From Cyanidioschyzon merolae (Eukaryota), in NCBI GenBank assembly GCA_000091205.1, contig AP006494.2: DNA of 64,000 nt; one strand, given 5' to 3'. Each line of letters opens with the position of its first letter. Positions within the stretch are counted from its first letter, which is position 1. Shown piece after piece: positions 2,416 to 42,554 of this stretch. Below the pieces are notes generated by a model that saw only the letters and a program-made list of their open reading frames with translations, was not told the DNA's origin and did not search any database. A program made the position numbers and the translations under genes.

Positions 2416-4017
2416 TCACTCCCATTCTATTGTTCCGGGCGGCTTACTCGTGACGTCATAAACAATGCGATTCACGCCACTGACCTCGTTCACAATTCGC
2501 AGTGAAATTCGCCGCAGCACCTCGAAAGGAAGAGGATACCAGTCGGCAGTCATGTAATCCGAGGTAGCAACCGCTCTCAGCGCAATGACCTCTTCGTATG
2601 TCCGAAAATCTCCCATGACTCCTACAGCTTTGCTGGAAAGGAGCACAGCGAATGCTTGTCCAATCTGTTCATACAGCCCTGCACGGCGCAATTCATGCAG
2701 AAAAATAGCATCTGCTTCGCGCAGTTTGTTCAAACGTTCGGAAGTAATCTCACCGAGAACACGTATGGCCAATCCCGGTCCAGGGAAGGGGTGACGATAG
2801 ACAACCTCCGCCGGTAAGCCGAGCACTAAGCCAAGCTTACGAACCTCATCCTTAAACAGATATCGAAGCGGTTCAATGAGTTTGAGCCGCATTCGTTGTG
2901 GCAGACCCCCGACGTTGTGATGCGTTTTGATCGTGGCACTCGGGCCCTTGTGCGATATGGATTCGATCACATCCGGATACAACGTGCCTTGGAGCAAAAA
3001 ATCGGCTGAGATTTTTCGCGCCTGCTCCTCGAAGACCTTGATGAACTGATTGCCGATGGTCTTGCGTTTCTCTTCCGGATCGGTAACCCCTGCTAGCGCA
3101 TCCAAAAAGTGCGTAGATGCATTAATACAATCAACCTGAACATGCATTTGGTCTCTCAGCATCGCCATCACGTCAGTCGCTTCATTTTTGCGCAAAAGCC
3201 CGTTGTCCACAAAGATTCCGCGAAATCGATCTCCAATCGCCCTGGACACGAGCAGCGCTGCGACCGTGGAGTCGACGCCACCGCTCAGCGCACCGACAAC
3301 GAGCGCATGCTCTCCTGTTTGCTCGCGGATTGTCCGAATCGCTTCTTCGAGAAACGCTTCCATGTACCAGTCACCTCTGCAGCCGCATACTGCCCGGCAA
3401 AAATTAGCCAGCACTTCCGTACCGTGCTCAGAATGACTCACCTCCGGATGAAACTGTAGTCCATATATAGGTGCAAGCACCGATGCATGCGCGTTCGGCT
3501 GCCCGTACACGGCAGCGTAGTTGCAGTTTTCCGTGCGGGCAATGGGGTAAAAGCCCTCGGGCAGCGAAATCACCCGGTCACCATGACTCATCCAGACCGA
3601 GCAGGAAGTCTTGAGGCCGTGAAATAGCGCGCCACCGTCAGCAGGATCTTCGACTACCTGGAGAGTGGCATGTCCGTATTCTCTCTTATCGCCGCACTCC
3701 ACCTTCCCTCCGAGCTGGTACGCAATCTCCTGCATACCGTAGCAAATTCCCAGTATAGGAATACCAAGGGAGAATATGCGCGCGTCGAGGTGCGGTGAAT
3801 CAGACTCGTAAACAGACGCAGGGCCACCAGACAGAATCAAACCCTTCGGTTTCAGTTCCATCAGGCGCTCTGGTCCAACATCGTAAGGGTGAAGCTCCGA
3901 GTAAAACCCGATGTCCCGAAGGCGCCTCACAATCAGATGCGCGTACTGGCTCCCAAAGTCGAGGACCACGAGTAGATCGTGCCCCGCGTGGATCGAGTTC
4001 TCCAACGGCTCTGTCAT
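2416..4017 (-). CDS. guaA: GMP synthase (glutamine-hydrolysing), bacterial-type two-domain form
   Basis: 533-aa uninterrupted ORF. N-terminal class-I glutamine amidotransferase region ([27 protein letters not shown]...GICYGMQE...HPEV), ATP-pyrophosphatase P-loop ([14 protein letters not shown]) and the C-terminal dimerisation domain ending PPGTIEWE. This is a full-length match to the GMPS family. Confidence 0.9.
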
Positions 4018-4094
4018 ACGAATGTTCAGAAGTGTGGGTGTTCAAGCTGCACCCGCGGTACAGTTGTCGTTGCGTTCCTGCGTTTCTCGGCGTC

Positions 4095-5447
4095 TGCGTG
4101 GTGCACCCACATCGGATTAAGGTGGAACGATGTATTTCGCATCCTGGTCCAGCCTTTCGATTCCCTCCGAACTTTCTTTCTCGGTGTACTGCCTCGGTAT
4201 CCAAATTGCACCATCAAGCGATTACGGATTCTTATGTAACTTTTGGATTCGCTGTCACCCTTTTTCGGAACTGTCTCTTCGATACGTTGCCGCCGGAGTT
4301 CATTACGTCACCGGTATCAAGTTGCTCCATGACACACACGAGGAGAAGTTCGTACACTTCTCCACAGCATTACCTACTTCTCAGGCACAGGAATCCATTC
4401 TTCCGTTTTCCTTGCAAACGGCAAGCTCAAATCACGCTTTCCTCAAGTTTTCGGTGTTTCTGTCTCGGAATATCTCGCAGGTGCAGCAATCGGTGCCGCA
4501 AGACTGACGGGAGCAAGAAATCGATGTCGACCCTTGACGACTTGTTCAATAGCTGAGGCCGGAAGTGCACTGAACTACTCACGCCGAAGAGTCGATTCCG
4601 TTCGAAAGGAAAATCTCCCTCTCTTTGTGGACATCCTCGAAGCGGCACTCGGCAGCAGCATGACGTGGCTCAATGGAACTGCACCCCAGGGCTCTTGTGT
4701 ATTCTGGTTCCATGCCAAAGGGTCTTGGACTCGGACGATGGTCATTGCAGCGATCGCTTCTTCAAGAACGCGCATCACGGATTCGCAGGAAGAGAGCGAA
4801 GACGAATCGTCCTTGCTCGAATTGATCTCCTGTCTGACTATTCCTCCCGGTTCTTTTTCACCATAGACAACATCGCTTTCCACGAATCCCGTATCAAACG
4901 GGACGGCGCGGACCTGCGCATGCCGCGGACAGAGAACTCGCCGATGGCACCTCCTTGAACAGGCTCGTAAGTCTTGGGTACTGCAGTCGGCGCGGAAACG
5001 GCGCTCGATATCGAGGTGACCATGCTGCTCCCGTGATGGGCATTGACTGAGCGCTGAATCAAGAGCTCATATGCGACAGGGCGGCGCTCGGAAGCTGACG
5101 TGTGGAGGAGAGATCGGAGCACCTGCGCACCGTCAAGCGTGATCGCTGCAAATGGCGCTCGTGGGCTCAGTGCAAAGAATGTGACAACGGCAAGTGAGGC
5201 ACTGATCGCGGTCTCCGCATGAACATGAAAAGCGTTCACTTAAGCTGGAAGTAGCGAAATCGAGGCAATAGCGCTGCAATCAATTTTCCTCCGCTGTTTA
5301 GAAGGAGCTGGAGGAAATAGAGAGACCTGCGTATTTCACGCCCAAACCAAGAGAGGCGAAAAGGAAGCATTAGCAGAGAGAGCTCGCCAGGCAGGTGTTG
5401 ATGGCATTGGAAAGAGACTCAAACTTTAGAGTGTGCGCCCGCAGAGG
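4095..5447 (+). mobile_element. dispersed repeat family A, copy 1 (about 1.35 kb); internal ORF frameshifted
   Basis: Near-identical to 24612-25992. ORFs 4130..4507 and 4534..4866 are identical to 24649..25026 and 25053..25385. The 3' end carries the shared terminal motif ctcaaactttagagtgtgcgc. It begins 78 bp upstream of the guaA start codon. Confidence 0.8.
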
Positions 5448-6046
5448 AGGATCGCTCCCAATTTATTCCAAAATCGCTGGTGGACTCAGAGGATTCTGCG
5501 TAGCGATGTTTCCTTCGCAAATGCAGACAGCGGTCCATCCGATGGCTGTTATCGGAAATCTTTCGTCCTCCTCGAGCCGACCACCATCGGGACATATGCA
5601 AGGTGTCCTTTCTAGATTATGTCTTGAGGCGTTCTGGATCAGGCCCCTGTTCTATCAGTGAACACTGTTCGCTGTTTGGAAGAACACGGAAGTGTCCAAG
5701 TCGGCAATGGGGCCGCCTCCTGCTGCAAGATAGGATCTATGCATCCAAAAGACTTTAGTAAACTGTGATGATCCTCTAACTTAAAGAAAGCTTCTAGGCT
5801 AGCGTTCGTGCTTGCACTTGGGTCTCTTTGTGCTGTCAGGGAGAGCGCAGACGTCCGAAGGACTCGAGTCTCCTGCATCGTCCACTCTCATGAAATTCGC
5901 GGCAATCGCGACATCGCGCGAGTTCCGATCTCCCTGCAAGCATCCTATACCCACCAGGCTACCTGATTGAGGGTTTGCTATTGCTCTTTCTGCACGGGGA
6001 ACGGGTTGAAATATACACCAAAAACGCTGCTTGACTACTGCCAGTA

Positions 6047-14271: not shown

Positions 14272-14689
14272 TCGAGTTCAGCTCCGTCGAACGCTGTCCT
14301 CCGGGGCAGCGCTGACTCGTGCTTCACGTGCTTAAAGCTACAACGCAGACCACAGTTTTACAGTTCAAACTTGTTTACTGCACAGGCCTTTTATCCAGGC
14401 TGCGCGAGTCACTCTAAGGATCTCAGCTTCTGTTGCGATGCAGCTGTCCTTAACTGTCAACCTTTGTTCCCGTTCAAACGGTCTCGGCGTGGGTGCGTAG
14501 CAGGATAACAGCTTGCTTTCACACCGGCCACGGCAATAGTCTCTAGAGATACGTCAAGAACTTCCGCTGCAGTTCAAAACAGATGCCCGCTGATCCCAGT
14601 CACCACTGAAGCAGCAAATCTTTGCTCTGCATAGAAACGCGCTCGCGGAGACAAGGGCTTTTAGTTACGCCATTTGCACTCTACCCCCA

Positions 14690-15175
14690 GGTGCGTGTCA
14701 TCAAATGCTTTTTCGCTGTTTAGAGCAGACGCGTTCAAACTGCATTCTTTTGAAGAAATAAAAACCCAAGTGAACGGAATTGATATAGAAGTCGGGGATC
14801 CTGGAGTGCCTTCTTTGTCAGTTTCGACAAGAAAATGGCAAAAATTCCTCTTCCCGCCAGCCATCGAGGAAATAAGAGCAAGTGACGAAGGAAAAAAGAA
14901 GAAACAAAGGTGAGCCAGACGAGAAAAAGTGTTCGCCCGACGGGACGATGACGAGACTAATGGCACAGAGGGCGCGAGTTCCAGCAATCCTTGCGATGAT
15001 GAGTTCCACCAGCCGCGATAAATGCAAGCAGTTCGTGGATTGATACTTCAACACTGTTATTAGTATCAAACGTTGCGCGGTTCTGAAGAAGAGACCCGCG
15101 GAGCTGAACCGATCGAACTCTGTGAGGCATCCTCTAAAGCTCGAAGTGTGCAAGGAGAAACTGAAAACGATAGCA
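14690..15175 (+). repeat. dispersed repeat family F, copy 1 (about 0.49 kb, diverged)
   Basis: About 75-80% identical by eye to 17010-17500 and to the reverse complement of about 45470-45960. Shared strings include gtgtcatcaaatgcttttt, aatggcacagagggcgcgagttc and gctcgaagtgtgcaaggagaa. Confidence 0.6.
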
Positions 15176-15549
15176 TAGGATCAGTCACAAAAGTATGGGA
15201 GGCGTCCGCGCGTGGATATTTATTTATCCTAGGTGAGGTTGGAACATTTTTCTGTGTCACTGACATGCGTAGTATGCCGAAGCTGTAAACGTAAAAGTAT
15301 TTCGGAAAAATCTCAAGGCAGGAACAGTGCAAGCAGTTTGGTGTTACATTTTAATATTGCGCCTCTATCGTGGCGCGCTCAATTTCCAGAATACATTTAC
15401 GCAACTCAACCGCTGTTTCCAGGTGGAAACCTATTTGGCGTGGAGCACCCGCAGTAACCAACTTGAACTTGCGCGGTCTAGTTTCCGGGGGTGCTTTGCG
15501 TTCCCTCAGTTTGCTTCGCTGCCTTCGAAGCTCGTGCACTGGGTCTTAA

Positions 15550-16203: not shown

Positions 16204-17009
16204 ATACTTTTCTTGGCTTCGCGAGCGTACTACGTACTGTTCATAGCGGCTTCTTGCGGGATCATGGGCCCGGAAAAGGACCGTCAAAGATTCATTTATA
16301 TGCTCCAGCTCCTTTGATGGTGCAAGATCGGTGCTTTGAACCAGAGTCACCCCGGATGTGCGATTGCTGCCGCAACCCTGAACTAGGCCAATGCCCTTCC
16401 TCAAACTTTAATGTGTGCCATTAACCTTGGGCAAGTGTTTTCTCTATGGCGTAAGGGATAGATCTGTTCCAGAGTGTGTCGCTGTGACATACTCCGTTCA
16501 CTTCGATCCTTTACTGCTGTGCTCAGATGGTCGCGAGGCATCATATCTTGCGCTGAATTCACTGCATGTCTAGTGCGATGGCTCGTGCCCGATATAAGTG
16601 GTCGTCCTTTTTTTGGATGTGCAATCACAGGATTAGTTATGTGTGCGGTTGCAGATCTGTTGCTTTCCGCCAGTATAAAAAATCTGCGCGCTTTCCATTT
16701 TCATTCTAAGAGCTGAATACCGATGTTGTCAAGCCTCTCGCAGATTCGACGTAAAGGTTGACAGATGTTTTCGCGTAGCGCTAGCTATATTCGTCTGCTT
16801 CGCATTTGCTGTCCAGGAACTCAATCTGGTACAGTAAAAGAGCGCAGGTACAGTCCCCGTCAAGACGTATGCAACTATCAATTGTATGCCAGATGGTAGG
16901 TGGGTTCTCCGCGTGCGTTTCTGTCTCGAATCGTCTAAGCTATATGACTCATAGGTGGATGCACGCATTCGGTACGAGCGCATGCACCTTGTTTTAGTCT
17001 TTCACCTCA

Positions 17010-17500
17010 ATTGCGTTCCATCCCCAGCCGTGTGTCATCAAATGCTTTTTAGCGATTTGTACCAGATGCATTCAAAGTGCGTTCATCTAAAAAGAATATA
17101 AAACCATGGAAGAGGTATGCACACGGAAATCAGGAATCCTAGAGATTTGTCATCACCGGCTGCCGGCAAACAATGAAAAAATCCTCTCCTCGATGTTACT
17201 CGAGCAAAGACAAGCGAATGAAGAAGAAGATGGTGATGAGGGGATATAGGCGAGAAATCGTGCCTGGACGACGGGATGATGACAAGACTTCGGTTGAACG
17301 GAGGGCACGACTTCGAGGACTCCTTGCAGTGGTGAGTACAATCAGCGGCACAGCAGGCATGGACTTCGTGAAACGAGATTCCAACGCTGCCATCAGTATC
17401 CGACGATATGCTGTTCTGAAGACGAGACCCGAGCAGTTGACGTGATCCGACTTTGTTAGGAGCCTCTTACGCTCGAAGTGTGCAGGGAGAAGCTGAAGCC
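17010..17500 (+). repeat. dispersed repeat family F, copy 2
   Basis: See the family F copy 1 entry. It lies directly upstream of the partial B copy. Confidence 0.6.
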
Positions 17501-17559
17501 CGGAGCACAGTCCTGTCCAAAAAGGCTGGGAAGCGTCCGTGGGTGGATAGTAACGTTCC

Positions 17560-18218
17560 CGAATCGCTCTCCAGCTTGGATCTTCCTTCCGATACGTGTT
17601 TCCTTGGAGACGATATAATGTACCAGAAATCCTCCATCGAACGGATAGGCGCCCTCTTCATAGTGCAGCGAACAGCGCCTTCGACGAGGTATCGCTCAGA
17701 AGACGCCCGTGATCTTTTTTGGACCGCACCGGGCGCGGAAACGGTGACGGGCACTGCGGAGGGCGTCCTTTGCTCTCCGAGGGCGCGTGCCGAGCGCTGG
17801 TGCGAGCGTTCACGTGACGCATGGCAGGCCTCGGAGGACAATTTGAGATGGAGCTATATGAACACGAGGCCACAGCGAATTGTCATCGATGCGCAAGGCG
17901 CAGCGTGGATAGGCACGAAGAAGATGAAAGAGCCAAGCGAAGCGTGGATCGCGAATAGCGCCGGTGCACGCGATGCGTTGACAACACCCGGAAGGAGCGG
18001 GATTGGGACGTGAGCGCGGCCACATGCATCCTTCGACTGCTGAAAGTGAGGCTGGCACCATATGAGGGACCGGCGCTTCAAATGCTGGAGGTAAGATATA
18101 GGAGAATGATGCAGTCGCGGAAAAATCCCACAAAGGCTGGTGTTGATGCCAGTTGGAAGAGGCCAAAATTTTAGAGCGTGCATCTGAGTTAGAGGGCCAG
18201 TTGTATGTCATTCTGACG
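17560..18218 (+). mobile_element. repeat family B, partial copy (3' half including the conserved terminus)
   Basis: ORFs 17453..18013 and 17810..18211 are near-identical to 20563..21177 and 20974..21438. It ends with ggccaaaattttagagcgtgcatctgagttagagggccagttgtatgtcattctgacgtgg. Confidence 0.8.
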
Positions 18219-18383
18219 TGGGTCTAGAGGTCGAGGTCATGAAAAATATGTCTCGCCTGACAAAGACGAGGTCACAGAGCCAGGCTGGCCTCATGCAGAG
18301 CCGCTCCCGAATTCGCCATACTCCCCTTCGATACCAAGTGCTCGTGCGAGGCGGCTACGAGACGCGCCCCATACGTGAGGCGC

Positions 18384-19988
18384 TCATCGGGGTGCTGCGT
18401 CAGGTAGGCGTGGGGTAGCGCACTCCCCGGCGCCGTCATCAGGGTCGTTCTGATGCCGGATGCGGCTGGGGGTGCGCTGCTTTGAAGGAGTCTTCGCGCT
18501 ATTCTGCGCAGCAACGACGAGACATTCCTCGAATATTTCAGCGAAACGCTTGCGAGAGAACCGCACCTGACGCACTTCTGCAAATATGGAAGTAGCAGTT
18601 ACAGTTTCTGGAAGATGCGACAGAGTGTACGCACAGTCCTCAAAATTGCCGCGCAAAAGACAATCCTGCAGCACTCTAAGGATAGCAAGGGCGGCCTTGA
18701 ACAGAAAAGCATCACCGAGAAGAAAAAACGCATCCCATATGCGAAGAGCATCATCCAAGGGAAGCACTCGACAGTAGAGGGACATGATCCAGCTGATGAT
18801 ATACATGTCGGACTCAATTCCTATGGCATCAAAGTGAGCTGCCAGTACGGGATTCTCCGAAAAAACTAGTCTCTGTTGCAGCAAAAGATAAGCCTGCACT
18901 TCGGGATTCTGCATTTTGTAAAATGAGGACAGGCAGCGGGACTTGGAGAGAATGTTCGCAAAGCAACAAAACGCAGTCGGAGCATCTAGATACAGCAATA
19001 GCGCAGCAGCCAGGTAGGACATGCCCTGCGAATACCCGAATTCTGGACGAAAATGGGCGTATGCCTCTAAAAGGCGCCGAAGCTCGCTCTGAAACGGCGA
19101 GCCTTCCGCGTGGAAAAACCCCAGCTGTGGGAAAGTGCGAGGCAGATCGAGAACGATCGCTTTCTGGGCAGCTGGACAAATGCCTCCGTCCATTCGCTCC
19201 TTTTGGTGTGTAAGTAATGTCTCTGCCTCACCACCAGCGCCGCCCAAATCCCCATCTGCTTGGCCGATTGTAGCGTCCTGGTGATGCAACGCACGTCGAG
19301 TCCTTTTCGCTTGTTCGCAAAGGACATCGAACAGACCCGGAGCGATTTGCATAGCATTTCCAATCAACCGAGGCCAGGCTTGTCCGCGGACGTTCGAAGG
19401 TATTCCTTCAAAGATCAGGCTCCGAATGCGTTTCGATTTCAATCGCTTTTCCCAGTTGGGGATGATATCTTGTTCCCATTCTTGTGCTAGTTTTCCCTGG
19501 TACTCTTCCCAGTCCAGTAGCTCTCCGGAAGACTTGAAGGTCCTCAAAACATGCCAGCGTGAGTGATGTGCACTGTTCTGCGACTGCTTTGCACTACCGG
19601 GAGTCGCTGTCCGCTCCGCAAGGGGCTCGGCAGGCTCGCCTCCCCTGAACTGCAACTCGCCGTCCTCGCTTTGCCATAGGCGATTGCGCAGGCGCCTCCA
19701 AACGGAACCTGAGCGAGAGCGCAGCCGTCTAGACGCACTGATCCACCCCACTTCCTCAGTTTCAACGTTTGAGCAGGCGTCATTTCGGAAAAAGTCTGTG
19801 GCGTTCACCACCGTGAAGCCCGAACTCCGCGAGCACTCAGGATCCAACGCTTGTTCCGGGACAGGAATCGGCTCCTCGCCGAGGTCAACCTCGCTCCAAA
19901 AAACAGGTCCCTGCACCTCATTGCGTTGAGCTTCCTTCCCTGAGCCCATATTTCTTTCCGCATCCAGGAGTACCTCCGTAAACAACAC
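18384..19988 (-). CDS. TBC-domain Rab GTPase-activating protein
   Basis: 534-aa ORF carrying the TBC arginine-finger and glutamine-finger regions (IVLDLPRTFP ... YSQGMSYLAA) and a Rab-GAP helical core. Confidence 0.75.
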   Translation of the reverse strand: MLFTEVLLDAERNMGSGKEAQRNEVQGPVFWSEVDLGEEPIPVPEQALDPECSRSSGFTVVNATDFFRNDACSNVETEEVGWISASRRLRSRSGSVWRRLRNRLWQSEDGELQFRGGEPAEPLAERTATPGSAKQSQNSAHHSRWHVLRTFKSSGELLDWEEYQGKLAQEWEQDIIPNWEKRLKSKRIRSLIFEGIPSNVRGQAWPRLIGNAMQIAPGLFDVLCEQAKRTRRALHHQDATIGQADGDLGGAGGEAETLLTHQKERMDGGICPAAQKAIVLDLPRTFPQLGFFHAEGSPFQSELRRLLEAYAHFRPEFGYSQGMSYLAAALLLYLDAPTAFCCFANILSKSRCLSSFYKMQNPEVQAYLLLQQRLVFSENPVLAAHFDAIGIESDMYIISWIMSLYCRVLPLDDALRIWDAFFLLGDAFLFKAALAILRVLQDCLLRGNFEDCAYTLSHLPETVTATSIFAEVRQVRFSRKRFAEIFEECLVVAAQNSAKTPSKQRTPSRIRHQNDPDDGAGECATPRLPDAAPR

Positions 19989-20029
19989 TCATAGGGCACC
20001 CCTGCAGGATATCTGCGAAACCCATGTAA

Positions 20030-21345
20030 ATTAAAATGTAGTATGGAATTGCGCGCTCTGCTCCCGTCTTTCAATTTATTCCAAACACTCTTTACATACG
20101 CAACCTCAACACCACAAGTGCAGCAATAAGGGACCAAGATTCATATGCGCTTTAGGATTCTCGGTTGTCATTTCGTTGCGGATCCTTCGACTCCTTCCCG
20201 CCGGAACTCTTGATGTTAGCGGAATCGTGATGGTTCGTGAAGCCTTCAATCAAGGCTTCGTAAATTAATCGACGTCATGACCCAAATCATAACTAAACGC
20301 CTCCTCGCTTGGCCTTTCCTTACGTATAGCATGCTCACATCGCGCACACTCCAGGCTTTCTATGCCTCTGTTTCAAGGTCAATGGTGCGCGCAGCAATTC
20401 GCACCGCTGGGTTGACGACGGAAAATACCTGACGATGACTGCTGCAGACTTGTTTACGAGCTCGAGCCAAAAGTTCACTGATCGTCTCATGTCATATAAT
20501 CGATTACTTCCGCAACACGACTCCTCCTCTTTTCGTTTCCATCAACGAAACGGCATCCGGCTGTGTCGAGATATCTCCAATGGGTATGCCCCCGGAAACT
20601 CTCGTATCCTCTGTTTGCATCGGGAAGAGCCGTGGAATCCAACTTCGGTCACTGCAGCGGTCGCTGCCAGTGGAGACAGCGCCACGCTTTGCACGAAGGG
20701 AGCGTAGATGGGTTCAAATTTCTCGACTGGCTCTCCAGCTTGGATCTTCCTTCCGATACGTGTTTCCTTGGAGACGATATAATGTACCAGAAATCCTCCA
20801 TCGAACGGATAGGCGCCCTCTTCATAGTGCAGCGGACAGCGCCTTCGACGAGGTATCGCTCAGAAGACGCCCGTGATCTTTTTCGGACCGCACCGGGCGC
20901 GGAAACGGTGACGGGCACTGCGGAGGGCGTCCTTTGCTCTCCGAGGGCGCGTGCCGAGCGCTGGTGCGAGCGTTCACGTGACGCATGGCAGGCCTCGGAG
21001 GACAATTTGAGATGGAGCTATATGAACACGAGGCCACAGCGAATTGTCATCGATGCGCAAGGCGCAGCGTGGATAGGCACGAAGAAGATGAAAGAGCCAA
21101 GCGATGCGTCGATCGCGAATAGCGCCGGTGCACGCGATGTGTTGACACCACCCGGAAGGAGCGGGATTGGGACGTGAGCGCGGCCACATGCATCCTTCGA
21201 CTGCTGAAAGTGAGGCTGGCAGCATATGAGGGACCGGCGCTTCAAATGCTGGAGGTAAGATATAGGAGAATGATGCAGTCGCGGAAAAATCCCACAAAGG
21301 CTGGTGTTGATGCCAGTTGGAAGAGGCCAAAATTTTAGAGTGTAT
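20030..21345 (+). mobile_element. repeat family B, full copy (about 1.3 kb); left arm of an inverted pair
   Basis: It is the reverse complement of 31415-32775: ORFs 20435..20707 and 32093..32401 are identical, as are 20563..21177 and 31623..32237. It encodes decayed fragments of a protein with the motifs GYAPGNS and CFLGDDIMYQKSSIERIGALF. Confidence 0.85.
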
Positions 21346-22186
21346 GCCAGCTTTAGTGGACCTGTTCCATTGTATTTTTACATGAGTGTACTGTACAAGA
21401 ATATCGCATCGGGGTGAGCCGGCGCAACGAAGCTGCATGACGATGTGGCCCGCTTAGCGGATGGAATCCGATAGATGACAACAGAGGGGCCCTCTTCCAT
21501 CGAAAGTGCGCTGCTATGTTGGTTAAATACGATATTCTCTGTTGATTCCGCGACGTACAGCGAAGCGCGCTCAGTATTTTGGAACAAACCCTCAAAGTCG
21601 AACGGGGCTTGTCCACGACCCAGTGCCCGAGACGCGGCTGGGAAGGATTCTGTTGTTTTGGAGAGATTTACATGCTCGCTGCCCGTTCTCTGCAATTGTC
21701 GAGGTTCGAAGACAAGCCGCTTGACTCTTCGCGGCTGAACCTGAAGTTGAGAAATGCCCCTGCGTGCGATGGTCCATTATTTGAATAAATTCCTGCAAAC
21801 AACGCCGAGTCTCCCCATAAAAGTGGAAAAGCAGTTCGGGGTCGAATCACTGGTGCTGTGGCATACGAAATGGACTACGTTGGATAATCTCTTAGGAAGC
21901 TTTTTGGATCCTACTCTAGGCATTCTCAAGTCACTGCGCTCGTGAAAGAAGCGCCAGATTTGTGAACACCAGGCCTAAAACGCAATGCCTGGGAACGCGA
22001 TAACAGTAGAAGCGCGGTTTCTGGTGGCGGATCGTGGGTCACTAAGATGAATCATATTTATCCCTACTTGTACAGATTGTTCAGGTGGATTCGTGGCAGC
22101 CGCCAGCACGACGATCTCGAACCGCCAAAACCTGCCAACCTACGACGCTGTCGCACAAGAGACTGGGCACCTTCTCCAACTGCTGG

Positions 22187-23911: not shown

Positions 23912-24611
23912 ACGCGAGACCAGGATGACCGAAGTGGCCGTCATCCGCTGCAGAATCTATGTACGCTTACCGACCGATTTGTGTGCAATACCCCAGTTAT
24001 CAGCGAATTTTGCCAGAATGCGTTTTGACAGAGCGAGAATCGCTCCATGTTCGCGAGCAGTCACTTTGTCAAGATCGCAAATGCCCGCACTCCTTAGAGT
24101 CGAGGCTCCCGTTTCTGATGCAGTCGCGAGAACGGCAGAACTATGGGTTGTTTGGATTCCACGCAACAAAGATCACGAACACAAATGACTTTCCAATACT
24201 TTTAGCAGGATAAAGGTCGATTATAGGCCTCTAATACGTTGTCAGTTGCTGGACACCTTGTTGATCATGCACCAGCTCAAGCACGTTGGACAGACTCGTC
24301 GAACCAGTTTGCGCGCTACGCTGACTAGCCTCGAAACTGGGAAGTGTGCAGATAAATGTTGCATCATTTCACACATATGTCTAACACAGCAGCTCTTTTG
24401 TCAGCTTGTGCACCTCATGAATATATTCAAGCATACATGTCAGATGGCGTTTGAGAAACGGGTCCGATCGGCGAAGACGAGGGCCCGCATGCACGCAACC
24501 TGCATGGATTGTCGGCGGCCTCGCAGCGCGTCATGGAGGCGAATACTGTGCTTGTTTACCTCTGATAACGACTGGTCGTGTTGGGATATACATGGGCAAA
24601 AAGGAAGAAAC

Positions 24612-25992
24612 TCTGCGTGGTGCTCCCACATCGGATTAAGGTGGAACGATGTATTTCGCATCCTGGTCCAGCCTTTCGATTCCCTCCGAACTTTCTTTCT
24701 CGGTGTACTGCCTCGGTATCCAAATTGCACCATCAAGCGATTACGGATTCTTATGTAACTTTTGGATTCGCTGTCACCCTTTTTCGGAACTGTCTCTTCG
24801 ATACGTTGCCGCCGGAGTTCATTACGTCACCGGTATCAAGTTGCTCCATGACACACACGAGGAGAAGTTCGTACACTTCTCCACAGCATTACCTACTTCT
24901 CAGGCACAGGAATCCATTCTTCCGTTTTCCTTGCAAACGGCAAGCTCAAATCACGCTTTCCTCAAGTTTTCGGTGTTTCTGTCTCGGAATATCTCGCAGG
25001 TGCAGCAATCGGTGCCGCAAGACTGACGGGGGCAAGAAATCGATGTCGACCCTTGACGACTTGTTCAATAGCTGAGGCCGGAAGTGCACTGAACTACTCA
25101 CGCCGAAGAGTCGATTCCGTTCGAAAGGAAAATCTCCCTCTCTTTGTGGACATCCTCGAAGCGGCACTCGGCAGCAGCATGACGTGGCTCAATGGAACTG
25201 CACCCCAGGGCTCTTGTGTATTCTGGTTCCATGCCAAAGGGTCTTGGACTCGGACGATGGTCATTGCAGCGATCGCTTCTTCAAGAACGCGCATCACGGA
25301 TTCGCAGGAAGAGAGCGAAGACGAATCGTCCTTGCTCGAATTGATCTCCTGTCTGACTATTCCTCCCGGTTCTTTTTCACCATAGACAACATCGCTTTCC
25401 ACGAATCCCGTATCAAACGGGACGGGCGGACCTGCCATGCCGCGGACAGAGAACTCGCCGATGGCACCTCCTTGAACAGGCTCGTAAGTCTTGGGTACTG
25501 CAGTCGGCGCGAAAACGGCGCTCGATATCGAGGTGACCATGCTGCTCCCGTGATGGGCATTGACTGAGCGCTGAATCAAGAGCTCATATGCGACAGGGCG
25601 GCGCTCGGAAGCTGACGTGTGGAGGAGAGATCGGAGCACCTGCGCACCGTCAAGCGTGATCGCTGCAAATGGCGCTCGTGGGCTCAGTGCAAAGAATGTG
25701 ACAACGGCAAGTGAGGCACTGATCGCGGTCTCCGCATGAACATGAAAAGCGTTCACTTAAGCTGGAAGTAGCGAAATCGAGGCAATAGCGCTGCAATCAA
25801 TTTTCCTCCGCTGTTTAGAAGGAGCTGGAGGAAATAGAGAGACCTGCGTATTTCACGCCCAAACCAAGAGAGGCGAAAAGGAAGCATTAGCAGAGAGAGC
25901 TCGCCAGGCAGGTGTTGATGGCATTGGAAAGAGACTCAAACTTTAGAGGGTGCGCCTGACATAGGTGAGTTCGTCAGTTCCACTTCATTCCA
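24612..25992 (+). mobile_element. repeat family A, copy 2 (about 1.38 kb) carrying an intact 220-aa internal ORF on the minus strand (25094..25756)
   Basis: See the copy 1 entry. In this copy the 3' end extends into the shared terminus ...tttagagggtgcgcctgacataggtgagttcgtcagttccacttcattccaacacacgtg. The 220-aa ORF has no family I recognise. Confidence 0.8.
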
Positions 25993-28099
25993 ACACACGT
26001 GTACCGATGTTTTGCTCAGAGCAGTTTTTTAGAACATGCATACCAGTAAACGTTCTTTATTATTGTTTTTCCTCGGAGGCAACCGATGAAAAGAATGTAC
26101 TCTCTAGATTGGAGGGCGCTCGCTCGAAGAATTTGTACCACCACGCAGGCTACTAGTGGACGACCTCACTTATACAAGCTAGTCACTCTGTGTTCAGCAT
26201 GTGCACAAAACATGTTATTCGCAGTCCTTATCCTATAAGATGTGCACCCAAGATAGAGCTCAGCAAGCTCCTTATATATGGCCTCCTACAGATCAATCTA
26301 GTCCATTCTACATGTTCTCTAAGAATATTGGTAGAGTAGCCAAAGGATATGAAATTTGAACACTACTGGTACTAAGGATGATTAAGAGATACGGATGCGT
26401 AAAGAGACAGGATCGCTTTTCAGGAACATCTTCTCGCGTTTAATATCTTTGTACTGGTGTCATTCTGAAACGATAATGTTTATTGCAGCAGACTCTGTTG
26501 CTCGACTCATTGACGAATACTTTGTTCGGGAGAGTCAGTAGAAATGTGAATTGGTAATCCTGAGGGCAACCCGCCTTTAATTATGAAGAGACAATCGATT
26601 AAGGTGACATCATCAGTCGAAATGGCGATTCAGTTGTGTAGTCGCGAAAAAAAAAGCTCGTAATTGTTATGATCGACCAACTCATCCTCCTTTTTCGAAG
26701 CACATGTCATGGGTTCTCCATTCCAGATTGTTCTCCCACATTCTTAGGTAATATCCCTGTCTATAACTTACCACCGGCCAAGAAGTAAGCAGCCACTATT
26801 GGTGTTAAGCTGCTCCTTGTGCCAGCCTATTTTTCTATTTTCAGTCTGGCCGTTGGTGCCTTCTTAGTTGTCGCGTGCTAATACATCGCCCATGATTGAA
26901 TGCACAAGTCTAACTCATCCGTGACAGTTCGCTTCGACGAATCGTTCTTCGAGAGGTTAGTCTCTGCCTAAACCAGCCATGAGCTTCCGGGTTGCTTCTC
27001 TGCTCCTGAGCGGGACTGAGCGAAAGGTGCGCTCTGGTAGTTAGGCCCGCTCGCGATGCAAAAAGTGTCGAAATCTTACGTCAAGACTTGGAGATGTAAA
27101 TATGGAAAAGGCGAGTTTCGATCCCACTGTCTGCTCAGTTCTTCTGAATCCCAGAGCAAAACAAACAGATACTGGGCGAAGCGACCAAAACCATGCCACA
27201 CCGCAAAATAAATTGGAACGCTAAGAAAGAGTTGGTCCCTGAGAGCAATTATGAAGCATCCATTCAACTACTCGAAGAGCAGCGGCGGAGCTCCTTCATG
27301 GTTTCTCCGTTGCACCGAGGAGATGGAAAGCGAATTACAGGCACAGAGAAGACCGACGAAAACGTAGTCTGCATTCACTTCATGGAACCGAGGTCTGAGT
27401 CGAGTAATGAGACTCAGCTGCAACCGTTCAAGGCAGACGAAGAGAAACACTCCAAGGTGAGCGTGGATTCCGAGTTGAAGGGCGTCATGGCCGTCGCCGT
27501 GCCTCAAAATAAAGAGGACGGGACCAAAGACCGTACCGGAATGCAGATGACGCTACTTCATTTCCCAGGGCTCGGTACGATCGACATTCGGGAATCATTC
27601 ACTCCAGAATGGAGAGCGGTGGGTTAAATGATGGCGTCGGGAATGATCTCGACGCTCTGAGCATTGTATGGAGGAGAAGAGGGTGCTTAGCGCAGTTCAT
27701 TCCGAGCGTGGATGAGCGGTCAATATACCATGCGGGTGCGTCTTGACAGGAAAAAAATGAGACCAAGCTGGTGACGCCTACGCGTTCAGATGTACCGAGG
27801 CCAGAACGGTATATTCGTCTCCCAGTGCAGTCAGCTGGAGAAGGAAATGATCGATAAGTCGCGTCGACTCGTACAAGCCTATACCGCTAGATATGCAGTA
27901 CCGCGCTTGGACTGCACTCCTGCTACTTCAGAGGGAGCGTAGAGCGAGTGCCTAAATCGATTTTGTACGCTTCTCGTCGACAGGTTCAGGACGAGCTACA
28001 CGGATCCTGAGCATGTGTGCTCGATGACACAGATAGAATTGCACAGCGTGAATCAGAGATGGTTCCATTATATGTCGCATGGTAGGTCGAACAAATGTA

Positions 28100-28420
28100 A
28101 GACGAAGAGCAAATAAAAGGTCGGAGGCATTCGCTGCTGTAGTTCCACCAGCAGCAATGCGCTCAAGCGCGTTTTGCGCAGAGACATCAACGACTCGATC
28201 ACGATCCGAAAATGTTTCGTGCTTCTGGAGCGTCCAGTAGCTTTATGTTGAGCGAACTGCCGATGGAATCTTCTAGTGCTCGGTGCGGACACTGAGCAGG
28301 GACGTTGTAGACTAGCGATGGGAAAGTGTATGGCCAAGAGAGAGCATTCGATTCTCGACTCGACGAAGGCACTAGTGTGGTACGGGTCAGCAATCCGGCA
28401 TGGCTCGAGCGCCTTATACA
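28100..28420 (+). repeat. degenerate relic related to repeat family E
   Basis: gaaaatgtttcgtgcttctggagcgtccagtagctttatgt compared with E-arm ggaaatgtttcgtgcgttcggagcgtccagcggtttgtgt; the flanking similarity is weaker. It lies inside an AT-richer tract with no supported gene (26.0-29.0 kb). Confidence 0.4.
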
Positions 28421-30885: not shown

Positions 30886-31414
30886 GATGATCGCGTTGCG
30901 ATAGGCTGAGGTGCTCGTTCAAGAGCTACGGCCCGAGACCCCGTGCCCCGCGAACGAATGCTCTCTCGTAGAGTTCTCATGAGAACCGCGGCTGAACTTT
31001 GAGCAATAGTAGCCTAGGCTGTCACCAAAGAAACAATAAACATCGGTAGTTTTCGAATCGTACCCACATACAGCACCTACGTGGCCCAATATGAGAAGTC
31101 GGCGCTGCTGTAGACGCTATCACCGAATACCTGGCTATGAGCCAGTCTAGCAAATCTCACTGTCTGCAACGCAGGCGGCCTGCGCTTTCGTCTTCCCTGA
31201 TTGCAGACGGCTCTCGCGCATTCAGGGTTGGTTTGCTTGAAATTGTAGATCTAAGCCCTAGAATATGTTCTTTTACCGCATGCGCGTATGAAGTGGAGTG
31301 GTCCATCTAGACCGTTCTGGATGCGTGCCGTTCGCCTTCGAACAGGGATCAGTAGGCACGCTCGCTCAGATGCGAAAACGTTTACGCTAGTTCGAAAAGA
31401 AGAAGCAGTCTACA

Positions 31415-32775
31415 CCACGTCAGAATGACATACACCTGGCCCTCTAACTCAGACGCACGCTCTAAAATTTTGGCCTCTTCCGACTGGCATCAACACCAGC
31501 CTTTGTGGGATTTTTCCGCGACTGCATCATTCTCCTATATCTTACCTCCAGCATTTGAAGCGCCGGTCCCTCATATGCTGCCAGCCTCACTTTCAGCAGT
31601 CGAAGGATGCATGTGGCCGCGCTCACGTCCCAATCCCGCTCCTTCCGGGTGGTGTCAACACATCGCGTGCACCGGCGCTATTCGCGATCGACGCTTCGCT
31701 TGGCTCTTTCATCTTCTTCGTGCCTATCCACGCTGCGCCTTGCGCATCGATGACAATTCGCTGTGGCCTCGTGTTCATATAGCTCCATCTCAAATTGTTC
31801 TCCGAGGCCTGCCATGCGTCACGTGAACGCTCGCACCAGCGCTCGGCACGCGCCCTCGGAGAGCAAAGGACGCCCTCCGCAGTGCCCGTCACCGTTTCCG
31901 CGCCCGGTGCGGTCCGAAAAAGATCACGGGCGTCTTCTGAGCGATAACTCGTCGAAGGCGCTGTCCGCTGCACTATGAAGAGGGCGCCTATCCGTTCGAT
32001 GGAGGATTTCTGGTACATTATATCGTCTCCAAGGAAACACGTATCGGAAGGAAGATCCAAGCTGGAGAGCCAGTCGAGAAATTTGAACCCATCTACGCTC
32101 CCTTCGTGCAAAGCGTGGCGCTGTCTCCACTGGCAGCGACCGCTGCAGTGACCGAAGTTGGATTCCACGGCTCTTCCCGATGCAAACAGAGGATACGAGA
32201 GTTTCCGGGGGCATACCCATTGGAGATATCTCGACACAGCCGGATGCCGTTTCGTTGATGGAAACGAAAAGAGGAGGAGTCGTGTTGCGGAAGTAATCGA
32301 TTATATGACATGAGACGATCAGTGAACTTTTGGCTCGAGCTCGTAAACAAGTCTGCAGCAGTCATCGTCAGGTATTTTCCGTCGTCAACCCAGCGGTGCA
32401 AATTGCTGCGCGCACCATTGACCTTGAAACAGAGGCATAGAAAGCCTGGAGTGTGCGCGATGTGAGCATGCTATACGTAAGGAAAGGCCAAGCGAGGAGG
32501 CGTTTAGTTATGATTTGGGTCATGACGTCGATTAATTTACGAAGCCTTGATTGAAGGCTTCACGAACCATCACGATTCCGCTAACATCAAGAGTTCCGGC
32601 GGGAAGGAGTCGAAGGATCCGCAACGAAATGACAACCGAGAATCCTAAAGCGCATATGAATCTTGGTCCCTTATTGCTGCACTTGTGGTGTTGAGGTTGC
32701 GTATGTAAAGAGTGTTTGGAATAAATTGAAAGACGGGAGCAGAGCGCGCAATTCCATATCAAATTTTAATGCTAT
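31415..32775 (-). mobile_element. repeat family B, full copy; right arm of the inverted pair
   Basis: It is the reverse complement of 20030-21345. Its inner end has cgcacgctctaaaattttggcctcttcc, the reverse complement of the shared terminus. Confidence 0.85.
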
Positions 32776-33672
32776 GCCAGTAAAGTGTGCGCTGGAACTG
32801 CACGCGGGCGCATTGCGCAACCTCGAGAGCCTCGCAGGATGGCGATGACCGAAGTTGAAAATTGCTCGCTGACAATCAAAGAAAGAGAGTCCGTGACGTC
32901 CACCGGTACAGGTGTCGAACACTTGTTCTGTTTCTGGGGCTTAATATTCGGTGCAATGCATCGATCTGGGGCTCTGTGAAATTCGATAGCATGAATTGCG
33001 GGAAATAGCGGTCTCGGATACAATTTTTTCCGTACCCCCAAGCGAGGACGCCTCTAGGCTGATGTGCGTCTCCTATCGCCTCTTAATGGACCGACGAAGC
33101 CTTAATAGTTGTGCAAGGGCCGTGCAACGCGGGTTCTCCCGCAGAGCACAGCGCAGGCGACGAGACGCAGCAATCGCTCCGAACAGAACCCGCAGCGGTG
33201 CCTCCAGTTTCGCAAAGAACGATTGAGCCAGGCTCTACACCATGGGCATGGATGAAACGATCAAACGCTTTCACTTCACGGGGTGGCTGCTCCGCAAGCA
33301 CTCGAAGCTGGGGACATGCAAAGCGGAGCCGAAATCTCCGCCCTGGTTGTAGAGAGCTGCGGCACGGCGGGAGGATGCCTCCGGTGAGCTCCATCGCTCT
33401 CGCCGAGCAGACAACATCACCGATTGTTTTGATAGGAGGACCTTTGGTTCCAATTACATAACTGCGAACTGGCGAATAATGTCGGCAATCGGGAGAATGT
33501 TCTCGATGGCGAACCGGTGCTGCCGCAAAGCTCACCGGTAGGTTAGTAGCCTCGGGCGGTGATTGCTGTTTCAATCGGAGCGATTGAGGACGCGCTTCCC
33601 GTGCTATCATTGCTACTAGAAGACCTTGTGTAGTTCCGCACGCGCTGTGCTGATTGCATAGCGTCATCAATC

Positions 33673-37668: not shown

Positions 37669-38931
37669 CCGTACCTTGGCGACAGCAGTCCAATAAGAAG
37701 CTGCGCTGGCTGGTCTTGCGGCACTGCAAACTACCCTCAGAGCACATTGGCAGGTAGAGCGCGCCCCTGCGACGTCCGAGAATCACCCGCCTCTGTACGC
37801 GCGCGAAAACAGAGCGCTGCGACCGGAGTTGCGATTTCGATGCCGCGCAGCGCCTCGACGGCAACGCGGGTTATCAGCGTAATCGTGCGCGGCAACTGTT
37901 CATGTGCGTAGTTCAACGCGATTCCTCATCGCTCAGGCGGGTGCGTCTACGCGGAGCGGTGTTTATTCGTTGCTCGATCATGCAGGGGAGTGCGAGCGGT
38001 GGCTTCCGAGTACGAGATGGAGCACAATTACGTTTTGCTTCTTGTGTGGGGCCCTTCGCACGGAAGATTTTGAAAGTTCACCGTTGAGAGCGGCCTACCG
38101 TTCGGATGTTGCCCTCAGAGTGTAGATGGTCATCGCTAGCGATAAATGTGGATGCTCCTCGCGTGTAGAGCTTGCTGGCATGGACGGAAACCTGAGTGTT
38201 TATCACGGTTTTCACATTCACGCTTCAACCTTGACTGTCGATCTTAGGGCGGGATTTGAAGAGATTGCAGCGCCGATTCGCGATAAGCGCTCAAGCGTCG
38301 TGTAATCCAATCTACCAAATAATTTGCAGCATTTCGGGACTGATGTTTCCTGCCAGGACACCTTGACAGGTGCTCGTCTAGAAACGTGCATGATGATTGG
38401 CTTCATTGCTGTTGCCACTGAGCAAACTTCGGGATAATAGTGCCCTCATGGTTTCTCTTCTGAGTCCAAACCGAAAAGGGATCCCGAAGCGGACAGCGTG
38501 CATCAATTGGTGCACTTTTTGGTTAGTAACGGATCTGGCGCGGGGCGTGGAACTCGAAACTTTCTGGCGCTCGTCTGGTTAACCACAATCGCAGCCGATC
38601 CCGATATGGGTACAGCAAAGCAGCTCAGTCTCCGCGAGGCGATCAAAGCAGGATGCGTCCGGCATAGCCGCACGTGCCCTCCTTTGTCTCGATGCCCAGA
38701 GAATCCTCGAATAAATCTATCCTTTTTTCTTAGGCAAATAATTACCTGGCGTCGTTGGAATGCACACGAGCTTGGATTGCAGCGGCAGTCGTTTTCCCAA
38801 TTTTCTTGCGAACCGCGCATCCTGGAATATGGTTACATGTACCGATTTCGCCTCAGGAAGAAAGCCGTCCGCTTTGACGAAATCATGCTCGTTATTTTGA
38901 CCACAATGGCGGCTTTGAAGGGCCTCACTTT

Positions 38932-40312
38932 TTCCGATTAACGCACCACACTTTGTCAGACAAGATTTTTACGGGTCCATCGATTTTCCTCCAGCGCCCG
39001 CTTCCGAGTTGGGGTTTCTTCGCACAATCATCGATACCTGCTGTTGGCGGCTTGTTCCGAGACTGCCTACCTTTCCCTTATCTTGTCTCTGGCTATGAGT
39101 ACACCGGTCTCTCGTGCCTCATCAACTCCCAGATCTGATGTCGATGGATGCTGATGGCAGTGCAAGTCCCGATTACACCGCACGGGGATATTGTCGACGC
39201 ATTTCGTGCATTGGCAAATGTTGCAATGTATGCTTCATTTGCCATATTCACCTTCTTTGTATACAGCCCCTGTGCTCGCTTCGTAACGGCAACACAAGGC
39301 TATGCGTAGATGAGACCTTATCCTCACCACAACTCATCCTCCAAGCGCCACCGCGTGGCGCGTGAGCACTTGATTCAGCGCTCGATACATGCCCCCGAAG
39401 GGCACAGAGTCCTCCCTGGATGCTCTTCGCGACATCTGCAACCAGTGCTGCACCGCACGACGACGGGTTTCTTCTAGGCGACAAACTCGGCGAGTACGCT
39501 GTCCAACGGGCGCGTAGGCGCACATTGTCCCATTCGATAGCGGATTTGTGGAGAGCGATGTCGTCTAGTGTGAAACAAGGACCAGAAGAAATATCGACGC
39601 TGGAGATCGAGTCCAGAATATTCTCTCCATCCGCGCTCCCTTCGTGCAATAGAGTTGCATAGTACCCATTGGAAGCGATCATTAGATAGCAAAGGCGAGT
39701 CCGAGACCATTTTGGATGCAAAGCGAAGCGACGGGAGCCTCCAGGAGCATATACCATGAAAGGTATCAGGCTGTGTGGAATCCCGCGACATCGATGGACA
39801 CAAGGCAACATGGTTTGTCTTTCTGACGGACATTATCATCGGATATGACACAATCTGTGAACTTTTGGCATGAGCTCCTGATCAAGTCGTCAAGGAACCT
39901 GGTCGAGTACTTATCATCGTCAATGCAGCGGAGCGCGTCCCTGTGCCCGCGAGCTGCCTTGAAACAGTCAGACCGAAAGCTTGGGGAACTCATGATTTGG
40001 ATATGCTTGATGCAGGAAAAGCGGAGGAATGGAGGCCTTTGGATAAGAACTGCATAATGGTATCGGTTATTTTACTGACGTGGGGTTGAGGGCGTCGCGA
40101 ATCATCGTGGTTTCGACGAATTAACGGATTCTAGCGACAGGAAGGGACTGCTCCGAAAAGATGACCAGTATCGTAAACCAAGGAAAGAGTGCGTAAGTCC
40201 GCATTGATGTGCTTCGAAGGTCAAGGCTGTTCATCTAGAAAAAGCTGGGGAAAGAACGGAAATACAGGAGGAGAGCGAAGAATTCCGTGTTCTGTTTTGA
40301 TCTGACATGAGA
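38932..40312 (-). mobile_element. repeat family C, copy 1 (about 1.38 kb); left arm of an inverted pair
   Basis: It is the reverse complement of 43843-45224. ORFs 39248..39811, 39114..39365 and 39845..40057 are identical to 44152..44901, 44784..45035 and 44088..44300. It encodes a transposase-like fragment on the minus strand. Its inner end is ...gttttgatctgacatg. Confidence 0.85.
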
Positions 40313-42376: not shown

Positions 42377-42554
42377 GACGGACCGTCATATTCCAAACCC
42401 AAAGATGGAAAATTCATGTTCCGATAGAATTTCTCATAGAGCATAGTGCATGTTGCTGCGCGAGGCGGCCGCATGTATAGGACTGGGGAGGCGTTCGACT
42501 GTTCCAGGCTGCATACAGGAGGTGAAGCAGCACGGCTGCTGAAATGACGCTTCT

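Follow-up and report, generated by a model that had tools for sequence, protein, structure and literature searches.

Promoter-proximal insertion is a known property of several mobile elements, i.e., the P element, mPing/PIF-Harbinger, Tf1 and the mimp MITEs that precede effector genes in Fusarium. PIF/Harbinger elements have a DDE_Tnp_4 protein with a Myb partner and a 3-bp TWA target-site duplication (TSD), and P elements have a THAP-P transposase and an 8-bp TSD. Cyanidioschyzon merolae, a minimal eukaryote and synthetic-biology chassis in which gene targeting by homologous recombination is routine, has been described as almost transposon-free, with 0.7% of the genome and an inventory of 8 class II elements; a few of its class II elements were reported to be closest to bacterial transposases (Nozaki et al., 2007, PMC1955436). 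A second inventory lists Mutator, Helitron, CACTA and unknown classes (bioRxiv 10.1101/2022.10.24.513474). Neither of these includes a Tc1/mariner family with eight copies in 64 kb, and none of the papers listed by a literature search paired Cyanidioschyzon with mariner, IS630 or Tc1. Eight copies of one family that appears to be of this type are found in a single stretch of 64,000 nucleotides of C. merolae 10D, which is called the window below. Compared with the sister genus Cyanidiococcus, the order of genes has been reshaped by this family, through which one segment of two genes also appears to stay invertible in natural populations.

The repeat blocks were delimited by BLAST of the window against itself, and annotated gene starts were set via exact protein look-ups. 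The features are as follows, with the strand given where one was assigned:

10-388: relic H1, 67% identity to 46219-46597
4082-5484, plus strand: A1, putative IS630/Tc1/mariner-type relic of ~1.4 kb; identity block 4093-5439
14671-15218: relic G1, central in a divergent spacer, with each of the two ATGs 331-399 bp away
17008-17549 and 45462-45860: further G copies
17556-18228, plus strand: B1, the 3' 673 bp only of a B-type element
19950-20009: gap between the annotated TBC/RabGAP start (minus strand) and the B2 5' tip
20010-21391, plus strand: B2; identity block 20030-21343
24601-26003, plus strand: A2; identity block 24612-25956, 99.6% identity to A1 over 1347 bp
27561-28333: diverged E-type relic, 72-85% identity in short stretches
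31409-32790, minus strand: B3; identity block 31409-32770
38925-40321, minus strand: C1; identity block 38925-40314, 99.2% identity to C2
40322-43824: segment of 3.5 kb bounded by C1 and C2, with two genes, CML182C (plus) and SDR (minus)
43825-45224, plus strand: C2, inverted copy of C1; identity block 43832-45224
47092-48827: E1, unclassified repeat of 1.74 kb
55678-57413: E2, inverted copy of E1, 99.7-99.8% identity (BLAST)
59255-60612, plus strand: F, old diverged family member, ~65% identity to A, B and C

Relic G2 immediately precedes B1, the 3' end of which lies 155 bp from the TBC stop codon. The 3' end of B2 is located 795 bp upstream of the ATG of the RING gene, and B3 is flanked by the ELO stop codon at 523 bp and the LIAS ATG at 882 bp. 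A2, at 689 bp from the stop codon of the RING gene, is near no ATG. The possibility that the repeats are an assembly artefact was ruled out, since the same junctions are present in many independent metagenome assemblies; A1, for example, is found at the same site in metagenome contigs L001-L007.

A, B, C and F can be aligned end to end at ~65% identity and constitute one family of ~1.39 kb. Judged from their sequences, they appear to be decayed, non-autonomous-looking copies of a DNA transposon of the IS630/Tc1/mariner type. The termini were analyzed in 11 aligned copies, including ones from outside the window. A terminal inverted repeat (TIR) of about CACCCATGTCAGAAT...GGAAC is common to all 11, with cores CCATGTCAGA... 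at the 5' end and ...TCTGACATGG at the 3' end and a consensus of ~CACCCATGTCAGAATGAAnTGGAAC. These TIRs are visible only in the multi-family alignment; a generic inverted-repeat scan found none, because they are short and degenerate. Seven of the 11 copies have the dinucleotide TA immediately after the 3' tip, and ~4 have it in front of the 5' tip. An alignable empty site was not found, because the spacers are too diverged from those of Cyanidiococcus; the guaA-BCKDH spacers of the two genera are unalignable, and the insertion site and TSD of A1 were not pinpointed. The best-preserved ORF is the DDE_3-like one of C2 (44152-44901, 249 aa). Its match to Pfam DDE_3 is weak (E = 7.6e-5; 23 bits at a cut-off of 28.6 bits), and a word-based homology search retrieved solely the C2 ORF itself. 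An exhaustive HMMER search revealed 121 relatives, of which the full-length ones (P0200, P0227, P0228, and P0235) match DDE_3 at 1e-22 to 1e-29. In the alignment, both D positions are kept in the C2 ORF, and the glutamate of YSPxxNPIE is gone. Thus, DDE_3 homology is supported, and no intact catalytic domain is apparent. All copies are decayed by frameshifts, loss of the catalytic E and an HTH region that is no longer recognisable.

The initial annotation compared the placement of the repeats with targeting by P elements, MITEs and Harbinger. These comparisons had to be abandoned, as the family is IS630/Tc1/mariner-like in its DDE_3-type ORF, short TIRs, TA flanks and size of 1.39 kb. MITEs are non-coding and shorter than ~800 bp, whereas the copies measure 1376-1406 bp and contain ORF remnants along most of their length. 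A PIF/Harbinger or P-element identity was rejected, since the Pfam similarity is of the DDE_3 type only and the flanks show TA and not longer duplications. With a length of ~1.4 kb, a single ORF with DDE_3 relatives, short TIRs and TA at most tips, the family resembles the ITm superfamily. It differs in its degenerate tips, and no named clade of the DD34E/DD37D type could be assigned to it.

The near-identity of some copies does not seem to reflect recent insertion. The blocks of 99% identity end inside the elements, short of the element ends, and the tails beyond them are 60-64% identical, as compared with 47±4% for random sequence. For example, the last ~45 bp of A2 are 64% identical to A1, and the body of B2 is 99.3% identical to B3, with both tips of B2 diverged from B3. 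Since the blocks stop before the element ends, the near-identical copies are best read as products of gene conversion between old insertions rather than as fresh insertions. Identity tracts that end within elements are also seen in ectopic recombination and gene conversion of other dispersed transposons, e.g., Ty and IS elements.

Cyanidiococcus was compared over ~31 kb of synteny, covered by the loci L047, L048, and L052, which overlap. The spacers measured there are 172 bp to ~2.9 kb long, no similarity to any of the window repeats was detected, and A1 is absent from the syntenic guaA-BCKDH spacer. The TBC gene is located between ELO and LIAS in Cyanidiococcus and between EAF6 and RING in 10D. 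B1(+), B2(+), and B3(-) are present at the three junctions of this relocation, with B3 filling the spacer that holds TBC in Cyanidiococcus, and their orientations are those predicted for two nested inversions between three copies. Similarly, the SDR/CML182C segment, which is bordered by C1 on one side and C2 on the other, is inverted relative to Cyanidiococcus. The two reciprocal types of junction, corresponding to both orientations of the segment, were found in independent metagenome assemblies, the isomers being deduced from short-read metagenome contigs and one sister species. Apparent recombinant joins of B1 with B2 and of A1 with A2 are present in contigs L011, L014, L032, and L043. A composite transposon consisting of C1, the two genes and C2 was considered and rejected: SDR and CML182C are in the same neighborhood in Cyanidiococcus without a flanking element, and the segment was inverted in place and not transposed. 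The location of repeat copies exactly at relocation and inversion breakpoints is reminiscent of inversions and deletions mediated by Ty and IS elements, and the occurrence of both isomers of the C1/C2 segment in natural samples also fits ectopic transposon recombination. There is no sign of a dedicated recombinase or of a site-specific system.

The initial annotation also reported that repeats sit close to start codons. They do, and the distances given were roughly right, but the anchors used for B2 and C1 were wrong. The A1 block ends 75 bp from the guaA ATG at 4017 (78 bp in the initial annotation). B2 is 80 bp from the annotated ATG of TBC at 19949, where the 521-aa protein BAM80775 starts; the 45 bp claimed before ends at a GTG at 19988, which opens the longest TBC ORF. 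The span originally highlighted, 19988-20043, straddles the gap between TBC and B2 and the tip of B2. C1 was said to coincide with the start of a 689-aa ORF and does touch its first ATG (40307), a codon made by the terminal TCTGACATG motif of C1 itself, but the annotated start of the 661-aa CML182C protein is at 40391, which leaves a distance of 77 bp. The C2 block is indeed near the SDR ATG at 43709, though at 122 bp rather than 134 bp. The true tips extend 7-20 bp beyond the identity blocks, resulting in gaps of about 60-115 bp with an uncertainty of ~±15 bp because the tips are degenerate. The ranges from 5' end to ATG are 64-75 bp for A1, 60-80 bp for B2, 69-77 bp for C1, and 115-122 bp for C2. 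Relic F, which had not been mentioned earlier, is located 111 bp from the CML189C ATG at 59143.

Since the repeats are transposon relics, the question of an insertion preference is a legitimate one. By the null expectation, 14-15% of repeat-free intergenic positions, or of TA sites, have an ATG no more than 125 bp downstream of them. Tabulated against this expectation, five of the seven family copies in the window with an intact 5' end are within 125 bp of an ATG (P≈0.001), a post hoc statistic from a window chosen for its odd look. Among the copies outside the window, i.e., N1, N2, N3a, N4, L050, L053, and L054 on metagenome contigs with ORF-based gene calls, the proportion is one in seven, which equals the null rate. 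The single proximal copy, L050, is ~100 bp from the ATG of a neighbor without Pfam support, whilst N1 and N2 directly adjoin Pfam-supported genes at the 3' ends of these genes; a GGACT-domain gene and a gene for an HCO3- transporter, each with a copy right at its 3' end, are clear counter-examples. When both sets are pooled, 6/14 copies are proximal (P≈0.01 at a null p of 0.14-0.15; 0.04 at p = 0.2). All six ATG-proximal ends are 5' ends, and none of 13 3' ends is proximal (Fisher P = 0.005). Hence, in every ATG-proximal family copy, the end upstream of the transposase is positioned head-to-head with the gene. The promoter-proximal targeting suggested in the initial annotation is thus reflected in a nominal, orientation-specific excess in the window, but not in the other copies, and a real promoter-proximal bias of the family is possible but unproven. 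Like P element, mPing, Tf1 and mimp insertions, the window elements occur in a gene-dense genome and precede start codons by no more than a few hundred bp. However, the bias in those systems was established from hundreds of insertions or de novo events, compared with 6 of 14 old copies and a failing replication subset here, and strict head-to-head orientation is not typical of them. If this placement is general, cloned promoter fragments of "500-1000 bp upstream" would often be mostly transposon, which would bear on construct design and on models of promoter evolution in compact genomes. If it is not, the observations are still of value because they correct the repeat annotation and document one case in which repeats mediated a rearrangement.

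The account that we favor, and to which we give an even chance of being correct as a whole, combines ITm relics, conversion and recombination between them, and promoter-proximal insertion with orientation-dependent survival. Copies would have entered intergenic spacers in the C. merolae lineage after its split from Cyanidiococcus and subsequently have lost their transposase frames. Ectopic gene conversion may then have homogenized neighboring copies into the 99% blocks, whilst recombination between copies would have relocated the TBC gene and generated the invertible SDR/CML182C segment. As for the placement, we infer that the elements most likely inserted into short, open promoter-proximal spacer DNA and that survival depended on their orientation. 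A promoter-bearing 5' end directed toward the gene would leave or replace a usable upstream region; in the opposite orientation, 1.4 kb of terminator-side sequence ahead of the gene would be purged. Promiscuous promoter activity of Tc1/mariner 5' ends has been documented in other species (PMC6446368). As the ITm target is a symmetric TA, no orientation preference is expected at insertion, and the orientation argument therefore relies wholly on presumed selection.

The strongest competitor of this account, to which we assign a smaller but substantial probability, is that the elements inserted by chance anywhere in non-coding DNA and that the initial annotation picked the ends that happened to be near ATGs. 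With most repeat-free spacers measuring 200-1500 bp, a large number of ends would be near gene boundaries anyway. The null-like proportion among the outside copies fits this explanation, as do A2, B3, G1, G2, G3, E1, and the E relic, none of which is near an ATG, and interspersed repeats in C. merolae were called randomly distributed (Nozaki et al., 2007, PMC1955436). Chance accounts poorly, however, for the excess in the window and for the clustering of the six proximal cases at 60-115 bp, always with the same element end; moreover, the asymmetry between 5' and 3' ends was outside the selection made in the initial annotation.

Considerably less probable is that the neighboring host genes now use the element 5' end as their core promoter or upstream promoter, which might be bidirectional, although this would explain the retention and homogeneity of these copies. 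The evidence for promoter supply is geometric: the gaps of 48-115 bp between tip and ATG would barely accommodate a typical core promoter and 5' UTR, and the element invariably lies head-to-head with the gene, with the end preceding the transposase ORF turned toward it. An AT-rich motif (ATTAAAAT / GATCAAAAC / GGATTAAGG) is present within the element close to the 5' tip, at a distance of ~75-145 bp ahead of the ATGs and in a region of 52% GC, and the activity of Tc1/mariner ends elsewhere (see above) adds to the plausibility. On the other hand, the gaps have no motif in common, the orthologous genes of Cyanidiococcus work in the absence of the element, preservation is just as good in copies that are far from genes, and B2 differs from B3 most strongly at the 5' tips, unlike what is expected of a conserved promoter. 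Among the results listed by a literature search, none gave transcription start sites or 5'-UTR data for C. merolae. In an extended version, which we consider no likelier, the 5' end of a dead family would constitute a conversion-homogenized bidirectional upstream region of housekeeping genes, with inverted pairs acting as recombination switches. The genes concerned would be guaA, RabGAP, SDR, and HIG1-neighboring genes, and such switches would flip or relocate genes with their immediate upstream sequence unchanged.

That a factor bound at promoters steered the transposase to the regions where transcription starts, as for Tf1 in fission yeast and P elements, is very improbable: it would explain the clustering at 60-115 bp from ATGs, but replication outside the window failed, the TA and AT content of near-ATG DNA is no higher than that of the other spacer DNA, the transposase copies are all decayed with no intact one to inspect for a tethering domain, and tethering alone leaves the strict orientation unexplained.

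Of the remaining repeats of the window, E1 has ORFs of at most 142 aa, all of them without a Pfam match. The G relics were considered as TnpB/Fanzor C-termini on the basis of an NAAxNI-like motif, but Pfam and PDB sequence searches gave this candidate no support, and it was dropped. A literature search on WSV486 yielded no link between the published 253-copy WSV486-like element and the window repeats. Scans for tRNAs and Rfam families across the window gave no matches, which argues against targeting of Pol III genes. When repeats of any family are considered, 7 of the 16 in the window are within 125 bp of an ATG (P≈0.003, post hoc). E1 is near no ATG; the E2 block ends 48 bp from the HIG1 ATG at 57462, in agreement with the 50 bp given initially, and relic H1, which was not mentioned there, is located 58 bp from the ATG at 447 of a rhomboid-like gene.

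Self-BLAST of the window recovered five groups of long near-identical blocks, and a more sensitive self-comparison revealed that repeats A, B, C and F (the last at 59255-60612) share ~65% identity across their whole ~1.39 kb. Because identity runs along the entire length, they constitute one family. Its termini were compared by aligning these copies with seven further ones from metagenome contigs; they share 5' ...CACCCATGTCAGAAT...GGAAC, which recurs inverted at the 3' end. Seven of 11 family copies have a TA immediately after the 3' tip, and copy length is constant (1376-1406 bp). The best-preserved ORF, in C2 (44152-44901), matches Pfam DDE_3 below threshold. An exhaustive HMMER search yielded 121 relatives, the full-length members of which (~320-330 aa) have DDE_3 at 1e-22 to 1e-29; in the transposase alignment, both aspartates are kept and the glutamate region is degraded. 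On the combined evidence of termini, TA, length, DDE_3-bearing relatives and aspartates, the family is identified as an IS630/Tc1/mariner-type DNA transposon in advanced decay, and not as a P element, a MITE or Harbinger, to which the initial annotation had likened it. This assignment agrees with the remark that the class II elements of C. merolae most resemble bacterial transposases (Nozaki et al., 2007; PMC1955436). The window contains eight copies of this one family within 64 kb; the published whole-genome count is eight class II elements (PMC1955436), and the classes in an EDTA-based inventory are limited to Mutator, Helitron, CACTA and unknown (bioRxiv 10.1101/2022.10.24.513474). The elements are of a known kind but are not catalogued as such in either inventory, and published C. 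merolae repeat annotation does not seem to cover this family fully.

Three unclassified repeats, E (1.74 kb), G and H, fall outside this family; no recognisable coding capacity was found in them. The G relics (14671-15218, 17008-17549 and 45462-45860) share ~68% identity. Translated conceptually, they match the N-terminal ~135 residues of a 342-aa metagenome ORF (P0174), the C-terminal part of which is DDE_3-like, and G2 abuts B1 in the same layout, which suggests a variant element with a G segment in place of the 5' half. A suspected resemblance of G to the C-termini of TnpB/Fanzor was not supported by Pfam and PDB searches.

The window is part of an 859,119-bp chromosome of strain 10D and consists of 44% CDS, 26% recognisable repeats and ~30% other spacer DNA; tRNA and Rfam scans of its whole length gave zero matches. 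Annotated starts of 22 genes were taken from exact protein look-ups, i.e., the following six and 16 others.

Window genes located by exact protein look-up
2416-4017, minus strand, guaA
18384-19949, minus strand, TBC/RabGAP
40391-42376, plus strand, CML182C
42555-43709, minus strand, SDR
57462-57749, plus strand, HIG1
58049-59143, minus strand, CML189C

Repeats had been noted close to five start codons. The observation is real but was too strong in two of the five cases. A1 lies 75 bp from the guaA ATG (4017), C2 122 bp from that of SDR (43709) and E2 48 bp from that of HIG1 (57462), close to the earlier values of 78, 134 and 50 bp. B2 is indeed near the TBC ATG (19949), but at 80 bp; the ~45 bp reported before was counted to position 19988, where the longest ORF opens with a GTG and not an ATG. 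The terminus of C1 does coincide with an ATG (40307), which arises from the element's own terminal TCTGACATG motif, but annotation places the CML182C start at the ATG that follows in frame (40391), 77 bp from C1. The H relics (10-388 and 46219-46597) are inverted to each other and 67% identical; H1, absent from the earlier list, ends 58 bp upstream of the ATG of a rhomboid-like gene.

A position was counted as proximal when an annotated ATG lies no more than 125 bp downstream of it, which holds for 14.3% of free spacer positions after removal of the repeats and for 15.2% of TA dinucleotides; near-ATG DNA is not richer in AT than other spacer DNA. In post hoc counts, 7/16 window repeats of any family are proximal (P≈0.003), as are five of the seven family copies whose 5' end is intact (A1, B2, C1, C2 and F; P≈0.001). 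For replication, seven extra copies with readable 5' flanks were collected by scanning metagenome contigs with a degenerate DNA pattern and by looking up related ORFs.

Surroundings of the 5' end of family copies outside the window
L050, a divergent 236-aa ORF without Pfam support starts ~100 bp away
N1, faces the 3' end of a Pfam-supported GGACT-domain gene at 702 bp
N2, faces the 3' end of a Pfam-supported HCO3- transporter gene at 252 bp
N3a, opposite a stop codon
N4, a short ORF ~500 bp away
L053, free of genes out to 1 kb
L054, a partial ORF ~200 bp away

Here, only one of seven was proximal, which equals the null. The enrichment seen in the window thus did not recur outside it, and this failed replication makes chance a serious rival explanation. 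Pooled, 6/14 family copies are proximal (P≈0.01, or 0.04 at a null of 0.2). Orientation, which had been overlooked, is uniform: in every proximal case the transposase-upstream end faces the gene, the family ends standing head-to-head with it at 60-115 bp, and no 3' end is within 125 bp of a start codon (0 of 13; Fisher P=0.005). Promoter-proximal head-to-head placement is suggestive but unproven.

These placement and orientation data would be matched if elements inserted into short spacer DNA and were then retained according to their orientation. A 1.4-kb element 60-115 bp from a start codon may be tolerated only where its gene-facing end serves as, or spares, the upstream region of the gene. 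In Tc1/mariner elements, the transposase promoter is located at the 5' end, and it is described as promiscuous in other species (PMC6446368); by analogy, the element's 5' end could act as the upstream region of the adjacent gene. No common motif was found across the element-ATG gaps. Just within the 5' tip, ~75-145 bp upstream of the ATGs, there is an AT-rich motif; its presence would fit promoter donation without proving it.

Three overlapping Cyanidiococcus yangmingshanensis loci cover the syntenic region; they contain none of the window repeats, and spacers measured there range from 172 bp to ~2.9 kb. Gene order differs from that of 10D at two places, with family copies at every breakpoint. 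At the first, TBC is on the plus strand in the ELO-LIAS spacer in Cyanidiococcus, whereas in 10D it is on the minus strand in the EAF6-RING spacer, bordered by B1(+) and B2(+), and B3(-) occupies the vacated spacer. Two nested inversions among three ancestral copies would account for the order and orientation of B1, B2 and B3. At the second, the SDR/CML182C pair is inverted, with the inverted repeats C1 and C2 at both ends. This 3.5-kb segment (40322-43824) occurs in two orientations among metagenome contigs (L011, L012 and L014): the 10D-type junction is found in L012, L013, L015, L016 and L018, while L011 and L014, from other samples, contain the reciprocal pair of junctions that belong to the opposite isomer. 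It is apparently a natural inversion polymorphism. The alternative junctions may be assembly chimeras, since the repeats are longer than the reads; however, the gene arrangement of Cyanidiococcus independently corresponds to the alternative C isomer. Other contigs join the A2 left flank to the A1 right flank (L043), the B1 left flank to the B2 right flank (L032), which would delete TBC, and the E1 left flank to the E2 inner flank (L014/L027); these are either real recombinant haplotypes or chimeras assembled via ~0.6-1.7 kb repeats.

The 99% identical blocks stop short of the element tips: identity falls to 64% between A1 and A2 over their final ~45 bp and to 60% between B2 and B3 over their final 48 bp, against 47±4% for random 45-mers. 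Recent transposition does not explain the near-identity, as a transposed copy would bring its tips along; identity patches within older, diverged copies point instead to ectopic gene conversion. That the relics are substrates of gene conversion and of the rearrangements separating C. merolae from Cyanidiococcus is firmly supported.

A distance of 5 bp separates the LIAS start codon from the end of a 194-aa ORF at 33083-33667 (minus strand). This ORF is predicted as a gene in metagenome contigs (L011); no 10D CDS is annotated there (BAM80778 and BAM80779 are consecutive), and neither of two start variants was present in the protein collection. If it is real, the B3 5' end would lie opposite its 3' end and not the LIAS start. 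At 53410-54455 (plus strand), an Exo_endo_phos (endonuclease/exonuclease/phosphatase) homologue with a counterpart gene in Cyanidiococcus is spread over two reading frames (53410-53706 and 53688-54455). It is apparently unannotated, since BAM80786 and BAM80787 are consecutive, with no CDS between CML186C and HIG1, and may be a pseudogene or a gene that has an intron or a frameshift.
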